A DNA stretch of 44,314 bases from Bacteroidales bacterium (lineage in GTDB: Bacteria; Bacteroidota; Bacteroidia; Bacteroidales; S143-33), in NCBI GenBank assembly GCA_027031265.1, contig JALVRO010000097.1, positions 1-44,314 of the forward strand. The letters are read 5' to 3'. This document shows positions 9,657 to 43,245 of this stretch, in pieces. Position 1 is the first letter of the stretch. The number at the start of each line of letters is the position of its first letter. The notes beneath the pieces are model-generated. The model had not been told where the DNA came from, searched no databases, and saw only the letters and a list, made by a program, of their open reading frames with translations. The position numbers and the translations under genes are program-made.

Positions 9657-9679
9657 AACAAACTTATATTTAAAATTTT

Positions 9680-11547: not shown

Positions 11548-11559
11548 AAAAACTTGATT

Positions 11560-17148: not shown

Positions 17149-17153
17149 TTGAT

Positions 17154-17981: not shown

Positions 17982-19487
17982 TTATGTTAGGTCAGAATAA
18001 TCCTTGAAATTCTCACGATGGCGACGGAATGGAAACCTTCTTCCTTGCTGGTTCTGGCGGTTTTCCCTACTACGATTGTTAGATTTTTTGTCATTGTCCT
18101 GACCATTGGCAGATTCTGCTGGTTGTGTGTCTTCCTGTTCATTCCCACTAATCTGGAGAGGCTCGTCTATGTGGGTCTCGATGGTCTCGTCTGTGACAAT
18201 ATCCTCATGTTGAGGCAGGGAAGCATCCAGTTCCAACTCTTCATCAACTGTCCCAACCTCTGTTTGTATTTGTTGCGATAGTTTCTGCTCCTGTTGCTCT
18301 TGTTTATCTTCCACTGGCTGTGGGGATTGCTTTGCTTCTTTGACCTGGTCAGCCTTGTCTTCCTCCTGCATACTCTCTACTTCCTGTATTTCTGATGGCT
18401 TAGCTGGCTTGAGTGTATGCATAAGATCCTCCATATTCTGCTTTTCCAGAGGCTTTGCCTCACCCAGCATCTGTCTGTTCTTGTAAATTGTTCGCGCGAC
18501 AAACAAGGCATTAACAAAAGAATTGTGATCAGCTTTATTCAGGCCAGCTATATCATAAGCCACACCGTGATCAGGAGAGGTGCGTATTATTGGCAACCCA
18601 GCAGTGTAATTAACACCCTGACCCCGACTGAGAACCTTGAAAGGAATTAAGCCCTGGTCATGATACATAGCCAGTACACCGTCAAAATTCTTGTAATTTT
18701 CCGAAGCAAAGAACCCATCTGCAGCATAAGGACCCAAGACATTAATGCCCTCTTCCTTGGCTTTTTCTATAGCTGGTATAATGATTTTTTGCTCTTCGTC
18801 ACCTATAAGTCCTTCATCACCAGCGTGTGGATTGAGAGAGAGCACTGCTATTAACGGTCCATCAATGGCAAAGTCTGTCTTGAGGCTTTTGTTAAACAAG
18901 CGAATCTTTGAGAGGATCTTCTCCTCTGTCAGCTCACCTGCCACATCACGCAATGGCACATGGTCTGTTACCACTGCGACACGCAAATCCTCATGTACCA
19001 TAAGCATCAGTACATCATCCACGCCAAACTCCTTGGCCAGATACCATGTGTGACCTTTGAACTGGAAATTATCACTATAAATAGCTGGCTTGCTAATAGG
19101 AGCTGTGACCAGTATATCTATCTTCCCTTCTTTCAGGTCACGTACCGCAGCCTGAAGTGCTGTCAAGGCAGCCTCTCCTGCTATCTCTGTGGCCTGGCCA
19201 AGCTCCACACGCACTTTATTACTGACGCAATTAATGATATTTACCGCTTTCCTGTCTGCACGCTCAGGTGCTTTGATATGGTTAAGCGTGACCTGTGGTA
19301 TCTTTAGCATTTTTTTGTAATAGGCTGCGACCTTGGGCGAGCCATAAATTATGGGTGTAAAAAACTCCAGCATTCGATGGTCGCGAAACGCCTTGAGGAT
19401 TATTTCATAGCTGATACCATTTATATCACCATGTGTGATACCAACTCTGATTTTCTGAATTTTTATGTCTGGTTTTTCGATTTCCAT
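17982..19487 (-). CDS. pdxA: 4-hydroxythreonine-4-phosphate dehydrogenase PdxA with a ~155-aa low-complexity C-terminal extension
   Basis: The PdxA core covers about aa 1-345 (GITHGDINGISYEII, LNPHAGDEGLIG, RTSPDHGVAYDIAG). An E/Q/D-rich tail follows, ending in an Arg-rich stretch (NRSRENRQNQQGRRFPFRRHRENF). Confidence 0.9.
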   Translation of the reverse strand: MEIEKPDIKIQKIRVGITHGDINGISYEIILKAFRDHRMLEFFTPIIYGSPKVAAYYKKMLKIPQVTLNHIKAPERADRKAVNIINCVSNKVRVELGQATEIAGEAALTALQAAVRDLKEGKIDILVTAPISKPAIYSDNFQFKGHTWYLAKEFGVDDVLMLMVHEDLRVAVVTDHVPLRDVAGELTEEKILSKIRLFNKSLKTDFAIDGPLIAVLSLNPHAGDEGLIGDEEQKIIIPAIEKAKEEGINVLGPYAADGFFASENYKNFDGVLAMYHDQGLIPFKVLSRGQGVNYTAGLPIIRTSPDHGVAYDIAGLNKADHNSFVNALFVARTIYKNRQMLGEAKPLEKQNMEDLMHTLKPAKPSEIQEVESMQEEDKADQVKEAKQSPQPVEDKQEQQEQKLSQQIQTEVGTVDEELELDASLPQHEDIVTDETIETHIDEPLQISGNEQEDTQPAESANGQDNDKKSNNRSRENRQNQQGRRFPFRRHRENFKDYSDLT

Positions 19488-28474: not shown

Positions 28475-29047
28475 TTAAAAAATCCAGTCTTTCAACACAC
28501 CCATCACCACAATAGCCAATGCAAAATAAACCACACCCAGGAAGAAGCATAACACTAACTTACCTGCACTCAAGGATTTACTAACATAGTTATCCAGTAC
28601 CAGACCATCTATTATTAACCAGAAAAGAAGCACAACAAATAATACTTTGCTGTGAAAGGAAGCATAATACAAATAAGCCGTTACCAGGCCCAGGGCAAAT
28701 ATTAACCATTTTTTATTCTCAATAGCCCTGAAGAAAAAAGCACCACCCAGTGCCAGCACTACCATATCCCTATAAAAATTCATATCAACCAGCAGCTTAT
28801 CGTACATAACCCATACAAAAAACACCACAGAAACTAACCAGGCAAAATAAATCCACAACCAGCTGACACTACCAATTTGGCGATCCATTAAAAAAGCAAA
28901 AAAAGCAACCCAGAACACATTGAAAACCACCGCAAAAACAAAGAACACAGCTATACCAAACAGGTTCAATGAGCTTGCAAAATACAACCAGAACGCCGCC
29001 AGTATAAAAATAATAGATACAAGGAGCGGCGAATAAAAATATTTCAT
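28475..29047 (-). CDS. Polytopic (~6 TM) membrane protein, unknown function
   Basis: Highly hydrophobic and Phe/Val/Trp-rich. I use MKYFYSPLL at ATG 29047, 10 nt after the upstream stop, rather than the overlapping track start 29077. Confidence 0.55.
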   Translation of the reverse strand: MKYFYSPLLVSIIFILAAFWLYFASSLNLFGIAVFFVFAVVFNVFWVAFFAFLMDRQIGSVSWLWIYFAWLVSVVFFVWVMYDKLLVDMNFYRDMVVLALGGAFFFRAIENKKWLIFALGLVTAYLYYASFHSKVLFVVLLFWLIIDGLVLDNYVSKSLSAGKLVLCFFLGVVYFALAIVVMGVLKDWIF

Positions 29048-29057
29048 CACACCTCTA

Positions 29058-30149
29058 CTAAGCCTGCTGCTCATCATAGAATGATTTGACCATATCGATC
29101 AATTTATCAACCTCAAACGAGGAAAGCTCTGCACATGGCGGAAGTGAAATTATACGGCGGCTAAAATCCTGGCTCACAGGATATTGTTTGTAATACAAAG
29201 GATTCGACTTGTCCAGCTTGTTGAGCACATAAGGGTAATAAACATTCAAATGAAGTCCATGTTCATCAAGATACTTTATCATCTGCTCCCGTCTGTCTGA
29301 CAAAAAGCTAAGCACATAATAATTGGGTTCACATCCCTGGCGCGGCACCAGAAAATTAACTTCTGGCAAACGCTCTGTTATCTTGTGAGCGATTTTCTGT
29401 CTGCGGTATACCAGGTCGCGCAAATAACGCATTTTGACCAGCAAAAACGAAGCCTGTATCTCACTCATTCTACTGATGAATGTCTTACGGGCTATTTGTG
29501 TGTCAAAGTGTTCGGAATGACGCATCTTTTTTAGTAATTCATGCAAATCTTTATCATCAGTGGCAATAGCGCCAGAATCACCAAAACCACCAAGGGTAGT
29601 AGTAGGATAAAAGCTAAAAACTCCCATACGTCCGAAAGTACCAACATGCCTGCCATTGAAAAAAGTACCAATAGCCTGCCACGCATTCTCTATCACAATC
29701 AAACCATGAGCACGTGCAAAATCATTTATTTGCTTCATGTCCTCACAATATCCATGGAAGTGAAACGGCACAATAGCACGTGTAAAAGGAGTAATGCTTC
29801 TCTCAAGCAACGAGTAATCCATCATACCTGTGTGAGGGTCTATATCCACAAATATTGGGCGCGCTCCAGACCTGGTAATTGCGTATAAATGAGCAGCAGG
29901 AGCAAAATTCGTGGTAACCACCTCATCACCCGGACCAATGTCACATGCCATTAACGCCATTGTCAAGGCATCAGCACCTGATCCCAGTGCTACAACATAT
30001 TTAGCCCCAGTATAATGAGCAAAAACCTGCTCAAACTGATCAAGCAATTTCCCCTCCAGGTAAAGTCCTGAGTCCAGCACCTTCTCTATAGCAGCAAGAT
30101 ACTCAGGTTTATAACGAAAAAACTCTCTTTCCAGATGAAAAAATTTCAT
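29058..30149 (-). CDS. DegT/DnrJ/EryC1-family homolog lacking the PLP-binding Lys and the pyridine-N Asp (predicted non-aminotransferase)
   Basis: Aligns residue for residue with the in-window paralog: VIENAWQAIG against VIEDCAQAHF, and FSFYPTTTLGGFGDSGAIATDD against FSFYPGKNLGAYGDAGGIGTND. Start taken at MKFFHLEREFF (ATG 30149). Confidence 0.8.
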   Translation of the reverse strand: MKFFHLEREFFRYKPEYLAAIEKVLDSGLYLEGKLLDQFEQVFAHYTGAKYVVALGSGADALTMALMACDIGPGDEVVTTNFAPAAHLYAITRSGARPIFVDIDPHTGMMDYSLLERSITPFTRAIVPFHFHGYCEDMKQINDFARAHGLIVIENAWQAIGTFFNGRHVGTFGRMGVFSFYPTTTLGGFGDSGAIATDDKDLHELLKKMRHSEHFDTQIARKTFISRMSEIQASFLLVKMRYLRDLVYRRQKIAHKITERLPEVNFLVPRQGCEPNYYVLSFLSDRREQMIKYLDEHGLHLNVYYPYVLNKLDKSNPLYYKQYPVSQDFSRRIISLPPCAELSSFEVDKLIDMVKSFYDEQQA

Positions 30150-30220
30150 ATCATCAGGCTTTTGTTTGAAAAACAAACTTAGCAATAAAGTAAAAATTTT
30201 CTGTAAAAAACTTTTTAAAA

Positions 30221-30886
30221 CTATCTACGACGGGTGTAATCATTTTCATACTTACGTACCATACCTACCAGAGAAACGAACCTGTCCCTGTCAATTTTTC
30301 GAAATCCCTGGACACCATCGAAGAATAGTAAATACCTGACATGTGGAAGGTAATGTTTTATATCAGCATTATCAATGTCAGCAAAGCTCATCCCCAGGTC
30401 ACGAGGATTGACACTACTGCGTATAGAATTAAGAAATTGCTTTGTCTTGGAGAGACTGTTTATTGATTTGAGCACAATAATATCGACAAAATTTTTAGCA
30501 ATTCGCATAGAGAGGCTAAAGTCTTTCTCATCGTCATAAATAGAAATTTTGAGCTGGCCCATTACCTGACCAGGCCACTGTTTGTTGGCTTTTAGCTCCA
30601 ATATATAATCAACATCTTTACCTTCAATTTGCCCCTGGATAACCTGCAAATCGTCTATCCAGTAGGCATTAGCATCAAAGGGGAAAATTTCAAGAATCTC
30701 ATGTGCAAAAACATCTTTCAGACTAAGCCCCAACCATTTATCTGGATAAATCTGTCTAACCTGTCGATACAAAAGAAGCAAATCTTCGCACGCAACAGAA
30801 TTATTAACCAGAAACACACCATCTGCCCCCAGGTCAAAAAACTCCCCTATAAGACTTATGGCCTGGCCATGACCATCTATCTCCAC
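30221..30886 (-). CDS. Hypothetical protein (GTG start; possible alpha/beta-barrel-like fold, unassigned)
   Basis: 221 aa from GTG 30886. The 23 in-frame sense codons upstream (LKKRIKGREIETTAEHIHLVIPF) contain no ATG, GTG or TTG. GADGVFLVNN faintly resembles BtpA/SgcQ-type barrels, but I cannot assign a family. Confidence 0.45.
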   Translation of the reverse strand: MEIDGHGQAISLIGEFFDLGADGVFLVNNSVACEDLLLLYRQVRQIYPDKWLGLSLKDVFAHEILEIFPFDANAYWIDDLQVIQGQIEGKDVDYILELKANKQWPGQVMGQLKISIYDDEKDFSLSMRIAKNFVDIIVLKSINSLSKTKQFLNSIRSSVNPRDLGMSFADIDNADIKHYLPHVRYLLFFDGVQGFRKIDRDRFVSLVGMVRKYENDYTRRR

Positions 30887-31163: not shown

Positions 31164-33386
31164 ATGGAAAATTTCTGGTCAGATTTAATCAGGAAAAGCG
31201 GAGGCGAGTACAATGCCAGATTTGAGTTTGATAATATTTGTCACCAGCTGCTGGGTTATCATTACCCAGGACGTAAACTTATCAATGCCAATAAGATAGA
31301 CACTATCACAAATACTGAAAACCTCTTGCTTGTTTACCTACCTAAATTTTTCTTTGATGTGCTAACAAATTCCCGTAAGAGTCAGATACGCAAAGCATTT
31401 AATCATACCCTGGAGACTATCAAAGACAAAGACTTAAAAATCTTTAAATGGATACTTTGCACACCATATAAATTTAACGAGGAAGACCTGAAATGGTGGA
31501 GCCAATGGAAATACAAAAATTTTGACCTTCACAATATCGAAATAGAACTACTCGACGGCGATAACCTCCTGGAACTAATAAAAAAATATAATCTCACTGA
31601 TTCACAAGCACAACAAACCCAACCTGCCGGTCAAGAGAAATCTACAATAGAGTCCAGCACAGACACAGATCTGGACTTTGACTTTGAGTTTCCTGCGGAA
31701 CACTCTTTACAATCTACATCTGCTGAAAATGACCATGACGAGACACCCTCATCTGGCCAGAGAGAAGCACACATCTCACACTCAGCTTCTTCAGATACCA
31801 TACAGGTAGAAGAAAAACCTGAACAGGAACAAGCGCAGCCTTCAGCTTATGAACCATTGTCTGAGCTACAGCCAGAATTAGAAACACAAAAACAGCAAAA
31901 AACCACAACCATAGAAAAAGAACAATCACAGGAGGCTGACGTTGACCAGAAATCCCCAAAAAAAGAACAGCAACCAGTGATTAAACTCGAAAAATACCCA
32001 AAGATAAAAAACGAATATCTCAGTATACTTGCCTCCATCGATAAACTACACAACGAAGAAAAAGAACAATTCAAAAAACTCCGTTCTATCAGTGACTTTG
32101 ATTACCGTAGGTTCAAACAAGAGCCTGACCTGGATGAAGTCAAAGGATACAAAACCCTGGACCTCTATTTCAAGGCAAAAACCTTTGAAGTAGACCAGAA
32201 ATATGACCTTGCTTTATTCTTTTACGAACTACTGGATAAACGTAAGCAAGACCTCAAAAATCGCTTTAAAAACAAAGCCCAGGAAGTCGAAAAATCATAC
32301 AGGGAAGTAGAACGGCAGCTCGATTTTGAAAAAAAAATTCTTCTGGGAGACCTGCTTCTGGTAAAAGACAAAAAACTCGAAGCACTCGAACACTACGAAC
32401 AAGCTCTACGACTGAAAAACAAGAACCTCGAAGCAAAAGTAAAATACAACGAGCTGCTGGGCGATATGCTTATGGAGTCGGGTCTCTACAATGAAGCTCA
32501 AAAAGCATACTCCGAAGCCCTGGGAAAAATCACAAATAGATTCAAAGAACGCAAAAATATCCTGCAGAAAAAAAGAAGTCTCGCCAAAACAATGAGCATT
32601 GCAGCAAGCAGAGTGCCGCTCATTTCACAGACTGGGCTGCTCATTGCACGTCTCAAGGAAATTCACAATAACCTGAAGCTTATCAATGCTAAAGAATACA
32701 TGCGGCTTAACAGATTTCTGATTGTTTCTGGCATTATCCTGGGTATAGTAGTGTTTGGACTTGTAATTAACAATGCTCTGAAAAACGTGCCTGGAGCTGT
32801 TGCCAGATCTGATGCCCTCATGAGCCAGGTATGGGATCTGAGTCAGGCCGCACTTATAAAAGGCGACAATTACATGGACAAATTCCGGCGCTATGGTTAT
32901 ACGCGTGTGCATGTTCTGGACAGCGCCAAACGTGCTTATAAAAGAGCTTTTTCTTATAACCGCATCAATCCTATTGCTCTGAAAAAATACAATATTGCCA
33001 AGAACTATCTGGACCAGTATATCAAACTTGCTAAGCGCAGACTCACAGAAAATCCTGGAAGATATTTCCGCCCTGTCAAGCCAATGAGCGAAGGCCTCCA
33101 ACTGGTTAAATACATGTATGACCCGCAGCGGCCAGGACTGTTTAAATTTGGCTATATTGATAAAAACCACAATCTTGTTATTCCGCCGCTGTTTGATTTT
33201 GACTACAATCGTCGCATGAAACCCGGTCGCGAGAGCTTCCATCAAGGACATGCTTATGTGTGCATTGTGGTTAACCCTGGCGACACAGCCTATTTCCAGA
33301 TCAACCGTTATGGCCGCCGTAGTTCTAAAATTTATTGGGTAGGGCCAAAACATCGTTACATTATCACGAAACAAAAAAGCAGATAA
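31164..33386 (+). CDS. Large multidomain single-pass membrane protein: degenerate Mrr-like N-domain, acidic/Gln-rich linker, TPR/coiled coil, TM helix, extracytoplasmic WG-repeat region
   Basis: 740 aa. The N-terminal ~150 aa follow an Mrr_cat-like pattern (RFEFDNICHQLLGYHY ... IDTIT ... LLLVYLPK ... IFKWILCTPYKFNEED ... IELLDGDNLLELIKKY). Low-complexity aa ~150-270. TPR-like YEQALRLKNKNLEAKVKYNELLGDMLMESGLYNEAQKAYSEAL. TM helix FLIVSGIILGIVVFGLVINNAL (nt ~32714..32779). WG-repeat signature FKFGYIDKNHNLVIPPLFDFDY (nt ~33141..33206). Confidence 0.7.
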   Translation: MENFWSDLIRKSGGEYNARFEFDNICHQLLGYHYPGRKLINANKIDTITNTENLLLVYLPKFFFDVLTNSRKSQIRKAFNHTLETIKDKDLKIFKWILCTPYKFNEEDLKWWSQWKYKNFDLHNIEIELLDGDNLLELIKKYNLTDSQAQQTQPAGQEKSTIESSTDTDLDFDFEFPAEHSLQSTSAENDHDETPSSGQREAHISHSASSDTIQVEEKPEQEQAQPSAYEPLSELQPELETQKQQKTTTIEKEQSQEADVDQKSPKKEQQPVIKLEKYPKIKNEYLSILASIDKLHNEEKEQFKKLRSISDFDYRRFKQEPDLDEVKGYKTLDLYFKAKTFEVDQKYDLALFFYELLDKRKQDLKNRFKNKAQEVEKSYREVERQLDFEKKILLGDLLLVKDKKLEALEHYEQALRLKNKNLEAKVKYNELLGDMLMESGLYNEAQKAYSEALGKITNRFKERKNILQKKRSLAKTMSIAASRVPLISQTGLLIARLKEIHNNLKLINAKEYMRLNRFLIVSGIILGIVVFGLVINNALKNVPGAVARSDALMSQVWDLSQAALIKGDNYMDKFRRYGYTRVHVLDSAKRAYKRAFSYNRINPIALKKYNIAKNYLDQYIKLAKRRLTENPGRYFRPVKPMSEGLQLVKYMYDPQRPGLFKFGYIDKNHNLVIPPLFDFDYNRRMKPGRESFHQGHAYVCIVVNPGDTAYFQINRYGRRSSKIYWVGPKHRYIITKQKSR

Positions 33387-34920: not shown

Positions 34921-35500
34921 AACAATACGTGTGCTGGACAGCAGACTCCAAAACTTACCGTACCACCAGAGGCGGCTAGAGTACTCGTTCCTGCATTTTT
35001 ATCCACAACACACACCTTTTAAACTCTCAGAACTTATCACCGTTCCACAGACTTATGTCAAAGGCCTTGTCAAAGCACGTTTCCTGTACAATGCCAGTTC
35101 CTTTGCCCTAGAATTTCATCATTACACTCCCAAAAAAATAAACTGCCTCAGACTCGTCCGGGCAGACTGGATTGACTATAGCTTCAAATACACAGACCGG
35201 TCGCAGTTTGAGGCCCTGCTTCGGGATACCAAAGGATGCAATGAAGTCTTAATCGTCAAAAATGGCCAGGTTACAGACACCTCGTTTTCAAATATTGTGT
35301 TTTTCGATGGCAAAAAATGGCTAACACCCACTACCTACCTGCTAGCTGGCACGTTCCGCCAGTATCTACTGGATACAGGCAAAATTACACAGGCACCTAT
35401 CAGGCCCGGAGACTTGAGGTATTTCACACACTTTAAACTCATAAATGCCCTGTTGGCATGGGACATGGAACCTTTGCCAATTGACAAAATCATTGTATAA
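34898..35500 (+). CDS. pabC: Aminodeoxychorismate lyase-like class IV aminotransferase-fold protein
   Basis: 200 aa. N-terminal LVETIRVLDSRLQNLPYHQRRL is typical of short Bacteroidota ADC-lyase-like proteins. It overlaps the pabB end by 23 nt. Confidence 0.65.
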   Translation: MSQYRLVETIRVLDSRLQNLPYHQRRLEYSFLHFYPQHTPFKLSELITVPQTYVKGLVKARFLYNASSFALEFHHYTPKKINCLRLVRADWIDYSFKYTDRSQFEALLRDTKGCNEVLIVKNGQVTDTSFSNIVFFDGKKWLTPTTYLLAGTFRQYLLDTGKITQAPIRPGDLRYFTHFKLINALLAWDMEPLPIDKIIV

Positions 35501-35583
35501 AAAACTTGTTGTAACCAAGGCATGATTCAAAGGACAGATGCAAATTTACAATTCTGACATTTCAGGATTAAGATCTCATTAAT

Positions 35584-35619
35584 ATCATAGCAGGGTGCCA
35601 TAGGCACGCCTGCTATGAT
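35584..35619. terminator. Long hairpin between convergent pabC and lpxA
   Basis: atcatagcagg gtgcc ata ggcac (g) cctgctatgat: 16 bp with one bulge. A second hairpin (ccttac...gtaagg) at about 35629..35668 lies directly after the lpxA stop. Confidence 0.5.
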
Positions 35620-35690
35620 TCTCAAATCACCTTACCTTTGTGAAAGATAAGACTTGAAAGTAAGGGAAAGGTTTCTATATGAACCATTTC

Positions 35691-36485
35691 CTATCCTTTC
35701 ACAGCCAAAGGACTTTTGATCAAGCCTCTTTGTGTCGAACGCAAAAAATTCAACACTTCTTCCCGCTCAGGCGATGGAGGAAAATTTTTCTCTATCTCCT
35801 CTATAGCATGCTTGAGGTTATATCCTTTGAGGAAAACATAACGGTACATATCCTCTATCATTCTAATCTGCTCATTGGTAAAGCCACGACGACGGAGTCC
35901 CACAGAGTTAACACCCTCGTAAACGACTGGCTCACGGCCAACACGGGAATAGGGAGGTACATCCTTGCGCAGGAGTGCACCGCCCTGTATCATGGCATGC
36001 TTACCAATACGGACAAACTGGTGTACAGCAGCTGTACCTCCGACTATAGCCCAATCATCGACTTCTACCTCACCAGCAAGCTGCACCCCATTAACCAGGA
36101 TAACGTTGTCGTGTATGATACAGTCATGAGCAATGTGTACATAGCCCATTATAAGGCAATTTTTCCCTATCTTTGTGGTACCTTTAGAAACTGTACCACG
36201 ATGCAGGCTTGTCATTTCGCGTATAATGGTATTATCGCCAATCTCAAGTGTTGACTTTTCTCCTTTAAATTTAAGGTCTTGTGGTTCGGCAGATACCACA
36301 GCCCCAGGAAAAATTTTGACATTGTTGCCGATTCTGGCTCCATCAAATATTGTAACATTCGGGCCTATCCAGCAATTATCACCTATTACCACATCAGGAT
36401 AAATTGTTGTGAATGCTTCAACTGTAACATTAGTCCCTAATTTTGCGTCTGGGTGTACATTAGCTAATGGATGAATTTTTGCCAT
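35691..36485 (-). CDS. lpxA: Acyl-ACP--UDP-N-acetylglucosamine O-acyltransferase
   Basis: MAKIHPLANVHPDAKLG start at ATG 36485 (the track start 36491 is TTG). Hexapeptide repeats and a helical C-terminal domain. It lies 2 nt after the lpxC-fabZ stop. Confidence 0.92.
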   Translation of the reverse strand: MAKIHPLANVHPDAKLGTNVTVEAFTTIYPDVVIGDNCWIGPNVTIFDGARIGNNVKIFPGAVVSAEPQDLKFKGEKSTLEIGDNTIIREMTSLHRGTVSKGTTKIGKNCLIMGYVHIAHDCIIHDNVILVNGVQLAGEVEVDDWAIVGGTAAVHQFVRIGKHAMIQGGALLRKDVPPYSRVGREPVVYEGVNSVGLRRRGFTNEQIRMIEDMYRYVFLKGYNLKHAIEEIEKNFPPSPEREEVLNFLRSTQRGLIKSPLAVKG

Positions 36486-36487
36486 AA

Positions 36488-37900
36488 TCAACGGTTTTTT
36501 ACTATTTGAGCTGTAAGCACGCCTTCGACTGCCAATTCGTTACCAACATAAGCACGACCCTGCATAACGACTATACCACGCCTGATTGGTTCGAGCAGTT
36601 GCAGATGCATTATAAGGGTATCGCCAGGGATGACCTTGCGTTTGAACTTAACTTTATCTATTTTAAGGAAATAGCTGGAATAACGCTGTGGATCATCAAC
36701 ATTATTAAGCACAAGCAGTCCTCCTGTCTGTGCCATGGCCTCAATCATCAGCACACCTGGCATTATTGGTTCGTGTGGAAAATGTCCACGGAAAAAATAT
36801 TGGTCATAGGTAATATTCTTAATACCAACTATTTGGGTCTCATCCATATAAACGACTTTATCCACCAAAAGAAAAGGATGATCGTGTGGCAGAAAGGTCT
36901 TTATCTTGTTTATATCCATTATAGGCTCTGCATTCAAATCAAAATCTGGCAAAACACCTTTCAGTTTACGGCGTTTTATCTCCTGGCGTATTTTCTTAGC
37001 AAACTCGACATTTGTTGTGTGGCCAGGCCTTGTTGCCAGGATTTTACCTCTTATAGGCATTCCCACCAGAGCCAGGTCTCCGATCAAATCCAGTAGTTTG
37101 TGACGTGCTGGCTCATTATTAAACAAAAGAATCTCTTCGTTGAGCACTCCACGGTCTTTAGTTAGCTTGATCTTGGGCTTACCCATTTTTTCAGCCAGGG
37201 CATCCAGGCGCTCCTGTGTGACATCTTTCTCGAGTATAATCAGAGCATTTTCAAGAGTACCTCCCTGGATAAGGTTGTTATTAAACAAATATTCCACCTC
37301 GCTGAGCAAAATAAAGGTCTTAGCTGGAGCTATCTGGTCTGCGAATTCATCAAGGTTATTGAGAGTAGCATACTGATGGCCTATGACAGCAGTCTTGTAT
37401 TCGATCATTACATGGACAGATAAATCATCATCGGGGAAGGTAACGATTTCAGCGCCACGCTCCTCATCGGTAAAATCAATAGTATTTTTGATAATAAAAT
37501 ACTGCTTATAGTCGTCCTGCTCAACTGTTCCGACCTTGCGTATTCCCTCAACGTAGTATTTAGCGCTACCATCGAGTATAGGTACTTCAGGTCCATTAAT
37601 TTCGATCAAAGCATTATCTATTTTCATCCCATAAAGAGAGGCCATGAGATGCTCTATAGTACCGACGCGAACGCCGTCTTTTTCTATTGTAGTGCTGCGA
37701 CGTGTATCCACCACATTCTCTGCCACAGCATCTATAACAGGCTGACCTTCAAGGTCTATGCGCTTGAATTTTATTCCATGACCTTCTTCTGCTGGCTTTA
37801 TTGTAATCTTAGACTTTATTCCTGTGTGCACACCAATCCCTTCAAAGGAAATCTCGCCTGCAAGGGTTCTTTGTTTTTCTTTTTTCTTGTGCATAAGCAT
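36488..37900 (-). CDS. lpxC/fabZ: Bifunctional UDP-3-O-acyl-GlcNAc deacetylase / 3-hydroxyacyl-ACP dehydratase (LpxC-FabZ fusion)
   Basis: 470 aa. LpxC part: GIGVHTG, ARHKLLDLIGDLALVG. FabZ part: LPHDHPFLLVDKV, FFRGHFPHEPIMPGVLMIEAMAQ. This fusion is a Bacteroidota hallmark. Confidence 0.95.
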   Translation of the reverse strand: MLMHKKKEKQRTLAGEISFEGIGVHTGIKSKITIKPAEEGHGIKFKRIDLEGQPVIDAVAENVVDTRRSTTIEKDGVRVGTIEHLMASLYGMKIDNALIEINGPEVPILDGSAKYYVEGIRKVGTVEQDDYKQYFIIKNTIDFTDEERGAEIVTFPDDDLSVHVMIEYKTAVIGHQYATLNNLDEFADQIAPAKTFILLSEVEYLFNNNLIQGGTLENALIILEKDVTQERLDALAEKMGKPKIKLTKDRGVLNEEILLFNNEPARHKLLDLIGDLALVGMPIRGKILATRPGHTTNVEFAKKIRQEIKRRKLKGVLPDFDLNAEPIMDINKIKTFLPHDHPFLLVDKVVYMDETQIVGIKNITYDQYFFRGHFPHEPIMPGVLMIEAMAQTGGLLVLNNVDDPQRYSSYFLKIDKVKFKRKVIPGDTLIMHLQLLEPIRRGIVVMQGRAYVGNELAVEGVLTAQIVKNR

Positions 37901-37905
37901 GAGTT

Positions 37906-39018
37906 TTAAGAATTGTAACCGTAAAATTCTTTTATTTTCTGAACCACGTATCTGATTTGTTCTTCTGTAAGCTCAGGATACATAGGCAGAGAGAGAATCT
38001 GCGACTGATAAGCCAAGCCTACGGGGAAATCTTCTGGTTTGTGGTTCAGACGAGCATAAGCTGGTTGTAGTGGTAATATTTTTGGATAATGAATAGCAAC
38101 TGCAATATCATTCTGCTTGAGAAAATCCATTAACTCATCTCTTTGCTGAGCCCTGACTTCGTATACATGGAAAATATGAAATGCATTTGGTCTGACCTTG
38201 GGTGTGGTTATCTCCCGGATATCTTTGAGCAACTCATTATAAAGCATAGCATTTTTGTAGCGCTTCTCGTTCCACTGCTGAATATACTTGAGCTTAACGT
38301 TAAGAATAGCTGCTTGCATTCCATCGAGGCGACTGTTAACGCCCTCTATTAAATGATGATGTTTTTTGAGCGCACCATGACGGGCAAACATTTTCATCTG
38401 CAGGTAAAGGTCCTCATCGTTAGTACCTATACCTCCTGCATCACCATAAGCTCCAAGGTTTTTACCCGGATAAAAACTAAATGTAGCCACATCACCAAAA
38501 GTGCCGACAAATTTATCATTAAAGGTAGCAAAATGTGCCTGCGCACAGTCTTCTATAACATAAAGATTGTGGCGGCGTGCTATTTCAACAATTTTCTCAA
38601 TATTAGCAGGTTGTCCGTATAGATGCACAGGTATAATAGCCTTTGTCCTTTCTGTAATTTTCTCTTCTATCAGGTCTGGGTTAATGTTATAATAATCAGG
38701 CTCTATGTCCACAAATACAGGTGTTGCGCCAGTGAGGCTAATTGTCTCGGCTGTTGATATCCATGTATTGCACACAGTGATAACTTCATCACCTTGCCCT
38801 ATCCCTAAGGCTTTGAGTACTATAAAAATGGCATCTGTTCCATTAGCCACACCAAGGAAGTATTTAAAACCATATTTCTCTGCATAATTTTTCTCGAACT
38901 GCTCGACATACTTACCACCGATAAAGGCAGTATCCCGGATAACAGAGGCAATAGCATTATCAATTTCGGATTTAATATTCTGATATTGAGCGTATAAATC
39001 AACAAAAGGTACTTTCAT
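37906..39018 (-). CDS. DegT/WbpE-like PLP-dependent sugar aminotransferase (3-keto-sugar aminotransferase type)
   Basis: MKVPFVDLYAQY start (ATG 39018; an alternative ATG is at 39039). GTDAI, IEDCAQAH, catalytic Lys in FSFYPGKNLG, and ARHGALKKHHHLIEGVNSRLDGMQAAIL, which closely parallels WbpE ARHGQDRRYHHIRVGVNSRLDTLQAAIL as I recall it. Confidence 0.85.
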   Translation of the reverse strand: MKVPFVDLYAQYQNIKSEIDNAIASVIRDTAFIGGKYVEQFEKNYAEKYGFKYFLGVANGTDAIFIVLKALGIGQGDEVITVCNTWISTAETISLTGATPVFVDIEPDYYNINPDLIEEKITERTKAIIPVHLYGQPANIEKIVEIARRHNLYVIEDCAQAHFATFNDKFVGTFGDVATFSFYPGKNLGAYGDAGGIGTNDEDLYLQMKMFARHGALKKHHHLIEGVNSRLDGMQAAILNVKLKYIQQWNEKRYKNAMLYNELLKDIREITTPKVRPNAFHIFHVYEVRAQQRDELMDFLKQNDIAVAIHYPKILPLQPAYARLNHKPEDFPVGLAYQSQILSLPMYPELTEEQIRYVVQKIKEFYGYNS

Positions 39019-39046
39019 ATTCTCTGAATTTTTTAGCATTTTTTGT

Positions 39047-39541
39047 TTACAAGTCACGAATCTTATGTGCAGGGTTACCTGCATAAATACCAGGTTCTGT
39101 AATATCTTTGGTAACCACTGATCCTGCACCAATTACCACGTTATCACAGATATGCACAGGCAGGATTGTAGCGTTTGTCCCTATAGAAACATTATTACCA
39201 ATTACTGTTTCTTTCCACAAAGAACGGTCACCTCCTGCAGGGCCGCCTTTCTGGAATTTATCATTAATGAACATTGCTCCGTGCGAGATAAAGCAATTAT
39301 CACCAATGGTCACCAGTTCACAAATAAATGCGTGGGATTGTATTTTACAATTCTTTCCAATGGTGACATCCTTCTGTATTTCAACAAACGGTCCAATGAA
39401 AGTATTATCACCTATCTTGCAACCATAAAGGTTAACAGGCTCTACAATACGCACATTCTCACCAAACTCAACGTCCACAATACCGATGGACATTAGCTTT
39501 GGCTGTTGGCCTTTCCATGTATATTTTTTCTCCTGTGCCAT
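39047..39541 (-). CDS. Left-handed beta-helix (hexapeptide-repeat) sugar N-acetyl/acyltransferase
   Basis: 164 aa with imperfect hexapeptide repeats throughout (IGDNTFIGPFVEIQKDVTIGKNCKIQSHAFI..., VIGNNVSIGTNATILPVHICDNVVIGAGSVV). The donor and acceptor cannot be read from the sequence. Confidence 0.75.
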   Translation of the reverse strand: MAQEKKYTWKGQQPKLMSIGIVDVEFGENVRIVEPVNLYGCKIGDNTFIGPFVEIQKDVTIGKNCKIQSHAFICELVTIGDNCFISHGAMFINDKFQKGGPAGGDRSLWKETVIGNNVSIGTNATILPVHICDNVVIGAGSVVTKDITEPGIYAGNPAHKIRDL

Positions 39542-39546
39542 AATTG

Positions 39547-40635
39547 TTAATGATTATTGTTATTAGCATGACCTAGTTTACATTTCTTTGGCTGGAAGCG
39601 CAGGAACACTTCTTTACCAGTCTCCATACTCTCATAAAGAGCAGTAATCAGCTCCAGGCTCTTGCGGCCTTCGAGACCATCTACCAGGGAGCGCGTGTTG
39701 TTCAGAATAGCATGTACCACATCTTCATAATAACGCTTGTGGCCAAAACCATAAACATTGGGAGGATTCTCATTAAACTGCGAACGGATAATATCATCTT
39801 CTGGTAGAGGCTCAGTAAACTCCCAGTGCTCTATACGGTTAACAGCAAATCCGCCTATCACAACAGAGCCTTTTTCTCCAAGTACAGAGATAGAGCCTTC
39901 CATATCCTTAGGACGAGCAGCTGTTGTGGCCTCTATTATACCCAGGGCACCATTCTTAAATGTAACAACAGCAGTAGCTGTATCCTCTGCTTCAATGTCC
40001 ACCAGTGCTGTAATACCCTTAGCAAAGACACTAACCACAGGCCCCATCATCCACTGCAATAGGTCCACATGATGGCTAGCCTGGTTGGCCAACACACCAC
40101 CATCCAGGGCCCAAGTTCCACGCCATGATGCTAGATTGTAGTAATTCTGGTCGCGCATCCAACGAACACGGATAGTGCCCATTACCAGCTTGCCAAAGCG
40201 GCCCTTGTCAATAGCTTCTTTGAGTTTTTGCACAGGAAGATTAAAGCGGTTTTGCTTAACGACAAATAATTTACAGTTGTTTCTATCACATGCTTCTATC
40301 ATTGCGTCGGCATCGTCTAGTGTCAATGCCATGGGTTTTTCGACAATGATGTGCTTGCCATATTTGGAAAGGTTTATAGTGTGACGGGCATGATTACCAC
40401 TCTCGGTGAGGACAGACACAACGTCAATATCTTCTTTTTGCATCATCTCATCCATGTCTGTGTAATAAGGCACATTGTATTTTTCTCCAAAAGAGCGTGC
40501 TTTTTCCTCCACAATATCACATACAGCAACGAGATGTGCATTTTTTATCTGACCAGTACCGAGCAGTTCTGCGTGTTTTTTTGCGATACGTCCACAACCG
40601 ACAAGAGCAAAATTTAAAGCTTTATCAGATGACAT
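39547..40635 (-). CDS. Gfo/Idh/MocA-family NAD(P)-dependent sugar oxidoreductase
   Basis: 362 aa. Rossmann N-terminus FALVGCGRIAKKH, family motif IIVEKPMALT, and a C-terminal alpha/beta domain with GGVLANQASHHVDLLQWMMG. Confidence 0.85.
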   Translation of the reverse strand: MSSDKALNFALVGCGRIAKKHAELLGTGQIKNAHLVAVCDIVEEKARSFGEKYNVPYYTDMDEMMQKEDIDVVSVLTESGNHARHTINLSKYGKHIIVEKPMALTLDDADAMIEACDRNNCKLFVVKQNRFNLPVQKLKEAIDKGRFGKLVMGTIRVRWMRDQNYYNLASWRGTWALDGGVLANQASHHVDLLQWMMGPVVSVFAKGITALVDIEAEDTATAVVTFKNGALGIIEATTAARPKDMEGSISVLGEKGSVVIGGFAVNRIEHWEFTEPLPEDDIIRSQFNENPPNVYGFGHKRYYEDVVHAILNNTRSLVDGLEGRKSLELITALYESMETGKEVFLRFQPKKCKLGHANNNNH

Positions 40636-40636
40636 T

Positions 40637-41671
40637 TTATCTGTTTTTTAGATTTTCGATTTCACGTTTCAGCTGATTGATATCTTCGACGAGTTTATAT
40701 AAACGTTTCGATACAATAAGGTTCTTGAGAAAGTCTTTGTGAGGAACGGCCGGTATACCTCCAATAATCTGATTATCTGCTATGTCTCCAGTAATAGCAG
40801 ATTTTGCCACAATCTTAACATTATTACCCACACGAAGATGTCCAGCAAATCCAGTCTGGCCACCTATCATGCAAAAATCACCAATTTTTGTAGTACCAGC
40901 CAGTCCTGCCTGTGCTGCAATAACAGTATGTTTACCGATCTCCACATTATGTGCAATTTGCACAAGATTATCGAGCTTCACACCCTTTCGAATAATAGTT
41001 GATCCCATTGTAGCACGGTCAATCGTACAATTAGCACCTATTTCCACATCGTCTTCTATAATCACATTACCAATCTGTGCTATTTTTTTAAACGAACCAT
41101 CCTCTCTCTGGGCAAAGCCAAAGCCATCACTACCAATGACTGTACCAGCATGTATTATACAATTACGGCCAATAACGGTATCTGAATAAATTTTCACCCC
41201 AGGATAAATAACAGAGCCAGCGCCTATCTTGACATTCTCACCGATAAACACATTTGGATAGATCTGTACATCATCCTCTATAACGGCATTCTTCGAAATG
41301 TATGAGAAAACTCCGATATAAACACCCCGGCCAATTTTAGCCTTTCTATGCACAAAGGAAGGACGCTCACGTCCACGTCTTTTTTGCTTAGACCGCTGGT
41401 AAAATTCCAGCAAAACAGCCAGGGACTCATAAGCATTATCCACAATAATCAATGTAGGCTTAACATTCCGGTCAGGCACAAGATACCGGCTAATCAATAC
41501 TATTGATGCCTCAGTAGTATCAAGGTATTTTGAATATTTTGGATTAGCCAGGAAAGTAAGTGTACCAGGGCGTGCCTCTTCTATTTTAGAAAATTCGCTT
41601 ACAGTAACGTCTGGATCGCCCTTTATTTCTCCATTAACAATAGATGCTAAAGCCTGCGCAGTATATTCCAT
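40637..41671 (-). CDS. lpxD: UDP-3-O-acylglucosamine N-acyltransferase
   Basis: 344 aa. N-terminal uridine-binding domain (LASIVNGEIKGDPDVTVS...LTFLANPKY), a long hexapeptide-repeat core, and a C-terminal coiled helix. Confidence 0.92.
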   Translation of the reverse strand: MEYTAQALASIVNGEIKGDPDVTVSEFSKIEEARPGTLTFLANPKYSKYLDTTEASIVLISRYLVPDRNVKPTLIIVDNAYESLAVLLEFYQRSKQKRRGRERPSFVHRKAKIGRGVYIGVFSYISKNAVIEDDVQIYPNVFIGENVKIGAGSVIYPGVKIYSDTVIGRNCIIHAGTVIGSDGFGFAQREDGSFKKIAQIGNVIIEDDVEIGANCTIDRATMGSTIIRKGVKLDNLVQIAHNVEIGKHTVIAAQAGLAGTTKIGDFCMIGGQTGFAGHLRVGNNVKIVAKSAITGDIADNQIIGGIPAVPHKDFLKNLIVSKRLYKLVEDINQLKREIENLKNR

Positions 41672-41692
41672 GAGTAAAATTTTTTAACACAG

Positions 41693-41723
41693 CAAATTTA
41701 TAACAGATATGTTTTCTAACAAA
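41693..41723 (-). promoter_or_regulatory. Candidate Bacteroidota sigma-A promoter for the lpxD operon
   Basis: On the minus strand, TTTG (41723..41720), a 19-nt spacer, then TAAATTTG (41700..41693). This matches the TTTG-N19-21-TAnnTTTG consensus. The box ends 21 nt before the lpxD ATG. Confidence 0.45.
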
Positions 41724-41774
41724 TTGTAATGCTATTATTTAGCATAAACACAAAGTAAAACCTTATATATCAAC

Positions 41775-41809
41775 AAATTGGCTATCCACCGATGGTGGAT
41801 AGCCAATTT
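41775..41809 (-). terminator. Intrinsic terminator immediately after the pepA stop
   Basis: aaattggctatccacc / gat / ggtggatagccaattt: a perfect 16-bp stem starting 6 nt after the stop at 41815. On the minus strand the stem itself ends in ttt and is followed directly by gttgat. Confidence 0.7.
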
Positions 41810-41814
41810 AAAAT

Positions 41815-43245
41815 TTATAGTTCCTCCAAAAAGCGTGTCAAAAGTCTAACACCTATACCTGTTGCACCTTTACCAAAATAGACTTTATTATCCGTCAAAT
41901 GTGCATTTGGCGCTATATCCAGGTGTATCCACGGATAATCAGTGAAATTCTCAAGGAATTTAGCAGCTGTGATAAGACCAGCATTTGTCCCACCAATATT
42001 CTTGAGATCTGCGATATCCGAACGCAGCATTTCCCCATATTCATCCCACAGAGGGAAACGAACCAGGCGTTCATACACACGAAAACCTGTGTCCAATAAT
42101 TTCTGCGCTACCTGCTCGTCTGTCTTGGCAAACATAGCCGAAGCATAAGGTCCTACAGCTCGAGCAGCAGAACCTGTGAGGGTCGCCAGATCAATAACTA
42201 GCTGAGGCTCATAACGCTGTGCATAGCTCAAGGCATCGGCTAGTATAAGGCGGCCTTCGGCATCTGTATTACGAATTTCCACTGTCATGCCATTGTGCAT
42301 GGTTAGTACCTCACCCGGAGCATAAGAACGGTCGCTAATAGCGTTATCTGTAGAAGGCACAAGACCAACGACATACAAAGGAAGTTTCAGCTTTGCTACG
42401 GCATACAAAGTTCCAATAACTGCTGCTGCACCTGCCATATCAGTTTTCATGTCCTCAATATAACCCGTAGGTTTGAGGTTCAATCCACCGCTGTCAAAAA
42501 CAATTCCTTTTCCTACCAGTACAATAGGTTTCTCATTTTTAGCATTATCCGGCTTATATGTAAGAATTGAGAAAGTTGGCTCGTATTTACTACCGCGGTT
42601 AACGGCCATCAGACCACCCATACGCAAGGATTCGATCTGTTTGCGATGGAGAACCTCCACGTCAAAACCTGCTTCCTCAGCCAAGGCTTGTATTCTTTCG
42701 GGCAGGTTCTCTGAATTGAGTGCAGGATAAGGCTCATTAACCAGATCACGCACTATAGCCACTGCCTCACTCAGATACACTAATTGCTCAAGCTCATCTT
42801 TCTCAATGCGCTCATCCTCTATTTCTATAGTCGTCAGGGTATTTCGTTTTTTATCCACATCCTTTGTGAAGTACTTGAGATACTGGTAATTAGCCAGAAG
42901 CAGTCCCTCGACAAAAGCCAGAACAACATCTTTGTCCAGTTCCATGGCTTTAACCTGGATAGCCTCGATTTTTTCATCATTAATCCGGGAACAAATTGAC
43001 CTAGCATTTTTGCGGGCCTTGTCCATCAACTTCATAAGGTCATCCTCCCCGGGGAAAAATGAGAGGATTATGTACTTACCAAAATATTTATTAAAGGTAA
43101 TGTTGTGCTTATCTTGAGCCAGGCGCTCACGGGCATAATGTATCTCAGTCTCAGACAGCCCCAGGTCTCTCAAGTCATGTGACCTGGGCAGGAGATAAAC
43201 CACGCTTTTCTTATAATCGAGTGATTCTATCTTGTTCAGTTCCAT
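41815..43245 (-). CDS. pepA: Leucyl aminopeptidase (M17)
   Basis: 476 aa. VGKGIVFDSGGLNLKP, NTDAEGRLILADAL, DLATLTG. Confidence 0.9.
   Translation of the reverse strand: MELNKIESLDYKKSVVYLLPRSHDLRDLGLSETEIHYARERLAQDKHNITFNKYFGKYIILSFFPGEDDLMKLMDKARKNARSICSRINDEKIEAIQVKAMELDKDVVLAFVEGLLLANYQYLKYFTKDVDKKRNTLTTIEIEDERIEKDELEQLVYLSEAVAIVRDLVNEPYPALNSENLPERIQALAEEAGFDVEVLHRKQIESLRMGGLMAVNRGSKYEPTFSILTYKPDNAKNEKPIVLVGKGIVFDSGGLNLKPTGYIEDMKTDMAGAAAVIGTLYAVAKLKLPLYVVGLVPSTDNAISDRSYAPGEVLTMHNGMTVEIRNTDAEGRLILADALSYAQRYEPQLVIDLATLTGSAARAVGPYASAMFAKTDEQVAQKLLDTGFRVYERLVRFPLWDEYGEMLRSDIADLKNIGGTNAGLITAAKFLENFTDYPWIHLDIAPNAHLTDNKVYFGKGATGIGVRLLTRFLEEL

Follow-up and report, generated by a model that had tools for sequence, protein, structure and literature searches.

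A predicted Wlb/Wbp-type diacetamido-sugar cassette within the lipid A operon of a narrow Bacteroidales clade

Three-gene pathways that install an acetylated amine at C3 of a nucleotide sugar include WlbA/WlbB/WlbC of Bordetella and WbpB/WbpD/WbpE of Pseudomonas aeruginosa, which carry out the steps from UDP-GlcNAcA to UDP-GlcNAc3NAcA of the ManNAc3NAcA pathway, and the wlbA-B-C genes follow each other in the order dehydrogenase, acetyltransferase and aminotransferase. In Methanococcus maripaludis, MMP0352/MMP0351/MMP0350 convert UDP-GlcNAc into UDP-GlcNAc3NAc before C6 oxidation. The GnnA/GnnB pair, for which we know of no dedicated N-acetyltransferase, turns UDP-GlcNAc into UDP-GlcNAc3N in Acidithiobacillus ferrooxidans, Campylobacter jejuni, Leptospira and Capnocytophaga. 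In Capnocytophaga canimorsus, the lipid A backbone is a GlcN3N-GlcN hybrid, as the original prediction made from the DNA described here had stated, gnnA and gnnB are dispersed and there are two lpxA genes, lpxA and lpxA' (PMC3342949). The Wbp product of Porphyromonas serves as the sugar linking type IX cargo to LPS (PMC4031482, PMC7468200, PMC13086638), and the acetyltransferase of P. gingivalis is a classical WbpD-like enzyme (PMC4031482).

The locus that we compared to these systems lies in a 44-kb stretch of Bacteroidales DNA (44,314 nucleotides, hereafter the window), in which six tightly packed minus-strand genes bring together early lipid A genes and a trio of amino-sugar genes:

40637-41671, minus strand: lpxD, UDP-3-O-acylglucosamine N-acyltransferase (NF002060 and Pfam LpxD N-terminal domain)
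39547-40635, minus strand: WlbA-type Gfo/Idh/MocA sugar-nucleotide 3-dehydrogenase, 362 aa (GFO_IDH_MocA N and C domains, PDB matches)
39047-39541, minus strand: small left-handed beta-helix (LbH) acyltransferase, 164 aa, predicted 3-N-acetyltransferase of an amino-sugar nucleotide (Hexapep only)
37906-39018, minus strand: DegT-family PLP aminotransferase of the C3-aminotransferase group, 370 aa (DegT_DnrJ_EryC1)
36488-37900, minus strand: lpxC-fabZ fusion, UDP-3-O-acyl-GlcNAc deacetylase and 3-hydroxyacyl-ACP dehydratase (NF009667)
35691-36491 (TTG start) or 36485 (ATG start), minus strand: lpxA, acyl-ACP:UDP-GlcNAc O-acyltransferase (NF003657)

LpxD, LpxC/FabZ and LpxA were called from scores above the NCBIfam cut-offs (406 bits to NF002060 for a cut-off of 207, 661 bits to NF009667 for 465 and 335 bits to NF003657 for 226, respectively), all six open reading frames were confirmed at the stated positions, and NCBIfam and Pfam agreed with the families named in the original prediction. 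The near-absence of spacers that it had described was also found: from lpxD to lpxC-fabZ, these are 1, 5, 28 and 5 nt in order, while the lpxC-fabZ/lpxA junction is a 4-nt overlap with the TTG start or a 2-nt gap with the ATG start. The upstream neighbor of the operon is pepA, encoding a leucyl aminopeptidase.

A synteny survey of 80 related Bacteroidota species showed that lpxD, lpxC-fabZ and lpxA are directly adjacent in 78 of them, as the original prediction had stated, so that "inserted" is a fair word for the trio; in the window the three genes share one strand, with lpxC fused to fabZ, and their order is the same in all of the 80 related loci that are complete. The insertion was detected in two of the 80 species (L001 and L002), which belong to the window's own narrow clade. 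It is neither ubiquitous nor already characterized; the original prediction had listed an insertion that is both among the outcomes that would refute its proposal. Further clade members (L085, L086 and L092) display the identical six-gene order with differing downstream flanks, spacers are also tight in L001, L085 and L092, and the LbH gene sits between the oxidoreductase and aminotransferase genes in every clade member. When the trio was compared with that of L001, pN was 0.05-0.08 and pS 0.66-0.74, a constraint equal to that acting on the lpx genes or greater, and strong purifying selection acts on all six genes within the clade. The six-gene arrangement has outlasted a divergence that saturates synonymous sites, while the downstream flanks were rearranged.

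Candidate transcription signals lie on both sides of the block:

41774..41810, minus strand: 17-bp hairpin just past pepA (fold -26.1 kcal/mol, z = -8.3), likely a terminator insulating the operon from upstream transcription
41693..41723, minus strand: Bacteroidetes-type promoter consensus TTTG-N19-TAAATTTG (exact pattern match), putative promoter
35584..35659, minus strand: two adjacent stem-loops 3' of lpxA (fold -42.6 kcal/mol over 116 nt, z = -7.0), likely a terminator region

The putative lpxD promoter is an exact match to TTTG-N19-TAnnTTTG, with 21 nt between its end and the lpxD ATG; the pattern has three exact matches in the 44-kb window for a shuffle mean of 2.2, so that the count alone does not exceed chance expectation. 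As originally predicted, it stands alone: the pattern scan of the window gave no other full consensus within the block, where one other minus-strand TAnnTTTG occurs at 38508-38515, inside the aminotransferase gene. Strong hairpins were likewise confined to the flanks, since a 50-nt sliding fold across 35400-42000 ranked the flanking pair as the two most stable (-26.6 kcal/mol downstream of lpxA and -26.1 kcal/mol upstream) and the best hairpin internal to the block reached -21.0 kcal/mol. Judging from these sequence signals, the lpxD promoter probably now drives the trio along with the first lipid A genes.

The oxidoreductase matched PDB 3q2k and 3q2i, which are WlbA bound to NADH and UDP-GlcNAcA, with E = 2e-93 and 8e-91, and Foldseek placed the same two structures first and second (identity 42-43%, TM 0.77-0.83); with the UDP-GlcNAcA 3-dehydrogenases of Bordetella and Chromobacterium it shares 42-43% identity. 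The EKP and HH-D motifs do not vary, and homologs at 72-79% identity occur across phyla, some of them named UDP-N-acetyl-2-amino-2-deoxyglucuronate dehydrogenase by JGI. The protein scored 316 bits to WlbA versus approximately 35 bits to PDB 7bvj, which we take to be GnnA of A. ferrooxidans, so that GnnA orthology is not borne out. It also scored 124 bits (E = 1e-35) to the archaeal UDP-GlcNAc 3-dehydrogenase model, far under the 450-bit cut-off, and is thus not a member of that model. By its sequence, this Gfo/Idh/MocA protein is a WlbA-type enzyme, homologous to the NAD-dependent C3 dehydrogenases WlbA/WbpB, and not a GnnA-like one.

The aminotransferase (Pfam DegT, 382 bits) is on record in the protein collection as the same 370-aa product. 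Its PDB matches were led by 7b0d (377 bits), QdtB (319), DesV (290) and WbpE (280, E = 2e-82), all top matches being C3 aminotransferases, while C4-type enzymes scored 90-195 bits. The Asp (VIEDCAQA) and the PLP Lys (FSFYPGKNLG) are both present, in line with the intact WbpE-like enzyme of the original prediction and with a DegT-family C3 aminotransferase of the WbpE/WlbC kind.

The LbH protein consists of hexapeptide repeats, and Pfam revealed no LpxA or LpxD accessory domains in it. Its best PDB relatives are 3-amino-sugar N-acetyltransferases (7s43, FdtD 4mzu, QdtC 3fs8 and WlbB 3mqg); the subfamily has no close relative in the PDB, the nearest solved structure being 7s43 (E = 5e-15). Homology to WlbB/WbpD is full-length but distant (E = 1e-9, or 5e-13 with a profile), and the protein is nearer to the dTDP-3-amino-sugar N-acetyltransferases. 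Since it is only distantly related to the characterized WlbB/WbpD, its acetyl specificity rests on context: homologs at 63-83% identity sit between oxidoreductase and DegT genes in glycan loci, and we predict that it is a 3-N-acetyltransferase of an amino-sugar nucleotide. In L082, this LbH family (77% identical) is paired with another type of oxidoreductase, indicating that what stays constant in the cassette is the acetyltransferase step.

In loci beyond the clade, the order oxidoreductase-LbH-DegT is always found amid glycan-assembly genes (L081-L084 and L087-L091), where it neighbors genes for GT1/GT2/GT4 transferases, Wzx, Wzy_C, Bac_transf, Wzi and WecA-like proteins, with PglB/STT3 nearby in the Nautilia locus. 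It is the dominant gene order among 80 metagenomic cassette loci, none of which has lpx genes within 8 kb, and most cassettes, like that of the window, have a WlbA-type partner oxidoreductase. Of the cassette contexts, 10 were read gene by gene: no 6-dehydrogenase lies within 10 kb in any of them, and an Epimerase_2 gene is present in one (L087). The annotated open reading frames of the 44-kb window include no UDP-GlcNAc 6-dehydrogenase (WbpA, which makes the uronic acid substrate) and no 2-epimerase (WbpI, for the manno form), both of which may be encoded elsewhere in the genome, and no glycosyltransferase; vimA, vimE and wbpS were not seen in the window either. SprA/Sov (2409 bits) and a cargo protein that carries a sorting domain are encoded in the window, revealing a type IX secretion system in this organism.

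We consider it likely that the trio is a complete Wlb/Wbp-type cassette for UDP-2,3-diacetamido-2,3-dideoxy-glucose or its uronic acid, co-transcribed with the early lipid A genes. The WlbA-like NAD dehydrogenase would oxidize C3 of UDP-GlcNAc or UDP-GlcNAcA, the DegT enzyme would transaminate the 3-keto sugar, and the small beta-helix enzyme would N-acetylate the new 3-amine from a presumed acetyl donor. The product would be a donor for a surface glycan, such as the LPS core or O-chain, or possibly the LPS-linked anchor of type IX cargo; since P. gingivalis uses a classical WbpD-like acetyltransferase, this last role is one possibility only. As WbpA, WbpI and glycosyltransferase genes were not found in the window, the substrate may be either the GlcNAc or the GlcNAcA form, and more than one acceptor would fit. 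The ancestor of one narrow uncultured Bacteroidales lineage would have gained this widespread mobile cassette between lpxD and lpxC-fabZ, and two branches that draw on UDP-GlcNAc, both ending in an outer-membrane glycolipid, would then be expressed together.

A diacetamido-sugar pathway that shares its transcription with lipid A synthesis was one of two readings offered by the original prediction and fits all the evidence. The other was that the oxidoreductase and aminotransferase make UDP-GlcNAc3N as GnnA/GnnB do and that LpxA acylates it, giving an amide-linked GlcN3N (or hybrid) lipid A, with the LbH enzyme acting as a valve or as an alternative N-acyl donor. UDP-GlcNAc3N(A) is indeed an obligatory intermediate of the trio, the genes lie amid lipid A genes, and hybrid GlcN3N-GlcN lipid A is known in Bacteroidota from Capnocytophaga (PMC3342949). 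The clade also carries T95S and N97H in LpxA, at positions that do not vary among 76 other LpxA sequences, and F198L and K212Q in LpxC, at columns invariant in other Bacteroidota; the LpxA catalytic residues are unchanged. However, the oxidoreductase resembles WlbA and not the presumed GnnA structure, and the acetyltransferase that would cap the amine, instead of leaving it free as in GnnA/GnnB systems, is retained by every clade member under strong purifying selection. This acetyltransferase has none of the domains by which LpxA and LpxD use acyl-ACP, and, being 63-83% identical to the copies found in ordinary glycan loci, it should work in the operon as they do in those loci. A comparison of LpxA with the GlcNAc3N-selective Leptospira enzyme revealed no special affinity (166 bits, versus 179 for E. 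coli and 276 for Bacteroides fragilis, whose LpxA 4r36 is the closest solved structure), pointing to an ordinary Bacteroidales LpxA, and the operon has a single lpxA where C. canimorsus has lpxA and lpxA' (PMC3342949). If the dehydrogenase uses UDP-GlcNAcA like WlbA, the amine intermediate would moreover be a uronic acid, an unlikely LpxA substrate. That polysaccharide loci are the normal home of the cassette, which had been set out beforehand as an argument against GlcN3N lipid A, also held in the contexts and metagenomic loci above. Altogether, we regard this second reading as very unlikely and set it aside on sequence grounds. We give similarly little credence to a chemically functional position, in which the cassette product or its 3-amino intermediate would enter lipid A or the inner core itself, for example as a hybrid GlcN3N backbone with the acetyltransferase tuning the supply of amine to LpxA, or as a 3-N-acetylated, under-acylated lipid A, the LpxA and LpxC changes then being adaptations to an altered substrate.

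It is somewhat less improbable, but still unlikely, that the cassette functions in glycan synthesis while its position has no regulatory meaning, having landed in a permissive spacer and being expressed from its own weak promoters or by incidental transcription. The lpxD to lpxC-fabZ spacer varies in relatives from 17 to approximately 400 nt (approximately 1 kb in L053) and can thus tolerate insertions, an internal -7-like motif exists at 38508-38515, and promoter prediction is weak in Bacteroidota. Against this, the spacers of this block measure 1-28 nt, with comparable packing in three other clade members, the block has neither a full internal promoter consensus nor a strong hairpin, and the arrangement survived saturated synonymous divergence despite rearranged flanks; since the essential lpxC-fabZ and lpxA lie downstream of the insert, transcription must pass through it or restart. 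It is also very unlikely that the cassette modifies another nucleotide sugar, or that the LbH enzyme transfers another short acyl group (e.g., formyl-like or hydroxybutyryl), such that the product is not a 2,3-diacetamido sugar. The low identity of the LbH protein to WlbB speaks for it, as does the fact that the best solved relatives of this protein and of the aminotransferase (7s43, FdtD, QdtC and QdtB) act on dTDP-3-amino-3,6-dideoxyhexoses, but the partner oxidoreductase is WlbA-type, and in established dTDP-3-amino-6-deoxy pathways a 4,6-dehydratase and a 3,4-ketoisomerase take the place of a Gfo/Idh/MocA 3-dehydrogenase.

The gene position is unusual. If the diacetamido-sugar reading is correct, the chemistry is ordinary and the lipid A made here is probably not of a novel type; only if the improbable incorporation into lipid A were true would the present view of lipid A chemistry change. 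Few gene arrangements in Bacteroidota are as rigid as the lpxD, lpxC-fabZ, lpxA block, and its stable interruption in this clade shows that an essential operon can absorb a glycan-precursor module. It also suggests that lipid A synthesis is co-expressed with the making of a distal LPS or surface-glycan component, the two competing for UDP-GlcNAc. Were this sugar to anchor type IX cargo, the supply of anchors would be coupled to growth of the outer membrane. The survey also brings out a very widespread and strikingly conserved oxidoreductase-LbH-aminotransferase cassette.

Compared with known systems, the archaeal MMP0352/MMP0351/MMP0350 enzymes have the same three activities and act directly on UDP-GlcNAc, but lineage and glycan differ and the oxidoreductase is below the archaeal model cut-off. 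The GnnA/GnnB systems share C3 oxidation, transamination and the link to lipid A, whereas here a WlbA-type oxidoreductase is accompanied by a conserved N-acetyltransferase capping the amine that LpxA would need. Wbp/Vim of Porphyromonas gingivalis and Tannerella forsythia (A-LPS, type IX linking sugar) belongs to the same order, Bacteroidales, with type IX secretion in both cases; the P. gingivalis wbp genes are, however, dispersed and include a WbpD/WlbB-like acetyltransferase, while the genes here are clustered with another LbH type. Wlb and Wbp of Bordetella and P. aeruginosa offer the same triad of Gfo/Idh/MocA 3-dehydrogenase, LbH N-acetyltransferase and DegT C3-aminotransferase, in the wlbA-B-C order for Wlb. 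In the clade described here, the acetyltransferase represents another LbH subfamily with shorter members (150-165 aa), matching WlbB at only E = 1e-9, wbpA and wbpI were not found in the vicinity, the enzymes may act on UDP-GlcNAc instead of the uronic acid, and the cassette resides between lpxD and lpxC-fabZ in a lipid A operon, rather than in a polysaccharide or O-antigen locus as its homologs elsewhere do.

The six minus-strand ORFs of the block were found where the original prediction had placed them, in the order lpxD, oxidoreductase, β-helix (LbH) acyltransferase, aminotransferase, lpxC-fabZ and lpxA, with successive spacers of 1, 5, 28 and 5 nt and then a 4-nt overlap. NCBIfam/Pfam searches gave 406 bits for lpxD, 661 bits for lpxC-fabZ and 335 bits for lpxA, each exceeding its curated cut-off, and assigned the three middle genes (the trio, or cassette) to Gfo/Idh/MocA, to hexapeptide repeats only and to DegT/DnrJ/EryC1, respectively. 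Because a scan for sigma-70 promoters and intrinsic terminators was uninformative, with counts at chance level, and is unsuited to Bacteroidota, we used a TTTG/TAnnTTTG search and a sliding fold instead. The Bacteroidetes promoter consensus TTTG-N19-TAnnTTTG has three copies across the 44-kb window, including:

41693-41723, minus strand: promoter consensus match, 21 nt ahead of the lpxD start

Within the block, only one further −7-like motif was seen, midway through the aminotransferase gene. A 50-nt sliding fold of positions 35,400-42,000 ranked the two hairpins flanking the block on top (−26.6 and −26.1 kcal/mol, with z-scores of −7.0 and −8.3), and the strongest hairpin internal to the block reached −21.0 kcal/mol. 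An Rfam scan of the whole window gave no match. It is reasonable to infer from this layout that the block is co-transcribed.

The oxidoreductase matched PDB entries 3q2k and 3q2i with E-values of 2e-93 and 8e-91, and both were also the top Foldseek matches of its AlphaFold model (pLDDT 75; 42-43% identity); it matched 7bvj, which we take to be A. ferrooxidans GnnA, with 35 bits only. Homologues that are 72-79% identical occur in Nautilia, Aliarcobacter butzleri and Cloacimonadota, some of them labelled by JGI as UDP-N-acetyl-2-amino-2-deoxyglucuronate dehydrogenase. The aminotransferase keeps both the PLP Asp and Lys and scored 280-377 bits against C3 aminotransferases (7b0d, QdtB, DesV, WlaRG and WbpE), versus 90-195 bits against C4 enzymes. 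The window also encodes a second member of this family:

29058-30185, minus strand: DegT-family paralogue that shares 32% identity with the aminotransferase of the operon

In this paralogue, Asn replaces the PLP-binding Asp (VIENAWQA) and Thr replaces the Schiff-base Lys (FSFYPTTTLG), which makes a canonical aminotransferase activity improbable; the ORFs on either side of the gene (28475-29077 and 30221-30886) had no family match.

The LbH protein consists of hexapeptide repeats only, without the C-terminal domain of LpxA or the N-terminal domain of LpxD. Since its AlphaFold model was poor (pLDDT 66) and Foldseek gave only meaningless β-helix matches (E > 0.07), we set the fold evidence aside and relied on single-sequence and profile matches, in which its best solved relatives were all 3-amino-sugar N-acetyltransferases: 7s43, 7s3u, FdtD (4mzu), QdtC and WlbB (5e-13 over the full length). 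The similarity to these solved relatives is weak, and homologues that are 73-87% identical were found in Bacteroidota, Verrucomicrobiota, Calditrichota and others. Judged by these comparisons, the protein belongs to a short, highly conserved and new subfamily of putative LbH acetyltransferases without a close solved relative in the PDB.

Homologues of the cassette showed where it usually resides. In every context read outside the narrow uncultured lineage that carries the insertion (loci L081-L084, L087 with two copies, and L088-L091), the genes stand in the order oxidoreductase, LbH, DegT and have glycosyltransferases, Wzx flippases, Wzy, initiating phosphotransferases and Wzi as neighbours. 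When metagenomes were searched with the LbH alignment, 80 more loci came up, in which the same order dominates and none of which (0/80) has lpxD, lpxC or lpxA within 8 kb of the cassette. The trio's homologues therefore sit in polysaccharide loci, a finding that the original prediction had named as refuting a role in lipid A. The LbH protein is paired with at least three oxidoreductase types (L082 4492-7281, L081 8997-11586, L087 8923-11615 and 15541-18306): the WlbA type found in the window (60-79% identical to the window's in other cassettes), a second WlbA-like subtype in L081 (about 40% identical) and, in L082, a different kind of 335 aa with 3c1a and 7bvj as best PDB matches. With its partners varying in this way, the acetyltransferase is the constant element of the cassette. 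L087, a single Bacteroidota contig, carries two cassettes 5 kb apart. In Nautilia lithotrophica (L090 10001-12621 and 14685-16835), the cassette shares its locus with a PglB/STT3 oligosaccharyltransferase, so that N-linked protein glycans may be where the sugar ends up in this organism.

The position between lpxD and lpxC-fabZ is rare. A search with LpxC-FabZ in a single genome of each species gave 80 loci, all from Bacteroidota MAGs (LpxC-FabZ identity of 52-89%), in which we then located all six proteins by tblastn. In 78 of these loci, lpxD, lpxC-fabZ and lpxA were adjacent or the locus was cut at a contig end; the trio was present only in L001 (LpxC-FabZ 89% identical) and L002 (79%). Protein look-ups added L085, L086 and L092, where the same six genes stand behind pepA with other downstream neighbours. 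The recurrence of the six-gene order in these five independent assemblies rules out an assembly artefact. Between the window and L001, pN was 0.05-0.08 and pS 0.66-0.74 for the trio, compared with 0.07-0.11 and about 0.75-0.77 for the lpx genes, and synonymous sites were saturated between the window and L085 or L002. The insertion is therefore old, has been passed on vertically inside one narrow lineage and is under constraint as strong as that on the neighbouring essential genes. Recent horizontal transfer was rejected because GC content is flat over the block and the divergence of the trio keeps pace with that of the lpx genes.

The survey also returned other variants. In another Bacteroidales MAG (L053 8998-10001), about 1 kb containing only a 111-aa ORF separates lpxD from lpxC-fabZ, and the junction used by the insertion therefore varies in relatives. 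In four loci from Flavobacteriales and Vicingaceae (L036, L062, L066 and L080), another LpxD-like gene (31-34% identical, at about 13.4-14.4 kb) follows about 1.2 kb downstream of lpxA; the window's clade does not have it.

Two readings of the trio had been put forward in the original prediction. According to one, GnnA/GnnB-like chemistry would feed LpxA and yield a GlcN3N lipid A. Capnocytophaga canimorsus does make a GlcN3N-GlcN backbone, but its gnnA and gnnB genes are dispersed and its operon has two lpxA genes (PMC3342949), whereas that of the window has one. The window's LpxA has the Bacteroides fragilis enzyme as its closest solved relative (276 bits), scores lower against the GlcNAc3N-selective Leptospira LpxA (166 bits) than against E. 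coli LpxA (179 bits), and has unaltered catalytic and sugar-binding residues. The insertion clade does show changes in its lipid A enzymes: LpxA (35691-36491) has T95S and N97H where 76 other Bacteroidota sequences show no variation, N97 aligning with E. coli H99, and LpxC-FabZ (36488-37900) has F198L, K212Q and T409S at positions that are likewise invariant among about 76 other Bacteroidota, LpxD having no such change. As many invariant-column changes occur in only 3-4% of single non-clade sequences. These substitutions are unexplained, and since the clade is more divergent than any other group compared, we do not count them as support for a GlcN3N lipid A. Literature searches on 7BVJ, 7B0D and LpxA His99 returned nothing usable. 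Given the 35-bit match to 7bvj, the LpxA scores and the usual glycan loci, this reading is not supported and we regard it as very unlikely.

The family matches and the usual glycan loci instead favour the other reading, a diacetamido-sugar pathway transcriptionally fused to lipid A synthesis, and a Wlb/Wbp-type pathway for a surface glycan is the best-supported function of the trio. C3 oxidation, transamination and N-acetylation would convert UDP-GlcNAc or UDP-GlcNAcA into UDP-2,3-diacetamido-2,3-dideoxy-glucose or its glucuronic acid form, destined for a surface glycan. WlbA acts on the uronic acid; no 6-dehydrogenase was found in the window, nor within 10 kb in ten contexts read gene by gene, and there is an archaeal precedent for a non-uronic order. 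With the lpxD promoter upstream of it, the cassette is probably expressed in concert with the genes for early lipid A synthesis, and UDP-GlcNAc would be consumed by both branches.

Elsewhere, the window carries:

3-7238, minus strand: SprA/Sov, the type IX secretion translocon (TIGR04189, 2409 bits), running off the window start
7836-9656, minus strand: aminopeptidase-N-like cargo with a C-terminal T9SS type A sorting domain
9659-9687, minus strand: promoter consensus, one of the window's three exact matches, immediately upstream of the aminopeptidase-N-like gene
10981-11577, minus strand: exosortase-like gene, best match XrtX, below cut-off
12620-14024 and 14014-16122, minus strand: sigma-54 two-component pair resembling the PEP-CTERM regulators PrsK/PrsR, near the exosortase-like gene
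16282-17202 and 17154-17969, minus strand: two adjacent overlapping ORFs with weak rhomboid or rhombosortase similarity
17982-19487, minus strand: 501-aa ORF matching PdxA over residues 15-339
31164-33386, plus strand: protein of 740 aa without a family match, its long central part being of low complexity and rich in Glu, Gln, Lys and Ser

The truncated SprA/Sov gene explains the absence of listed ORFs in the first 7 kb. The PrsR-like response regulator is split into a receiver (13386-14024) and an AAA+/HTH part (12620-13363), which suggests a frameshift or pseudogene, and the PdxA ORF, with about 160 C-terminal residues outside the match, could be a fusion or have a mis-called stop.

In Porphyromonas, the Wbp product is the linking sugar of type IX cargo (PMC4031482, PMC7468200, PMC13086638), and with SprA/Sov and a cargo protein encoded in the window, the cassette sugar might similarly be an LPS-borne linking sugar for such cargo. 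We hold this idea to be rather unlikely, because the P. gingivalis acetyltransferase is WbpD-like, in contrast to the short LbH subfamily of the window. The chemistry of the trio is that of a known pathway; its location, within an operon that is among the phylum's most conserved, is new.
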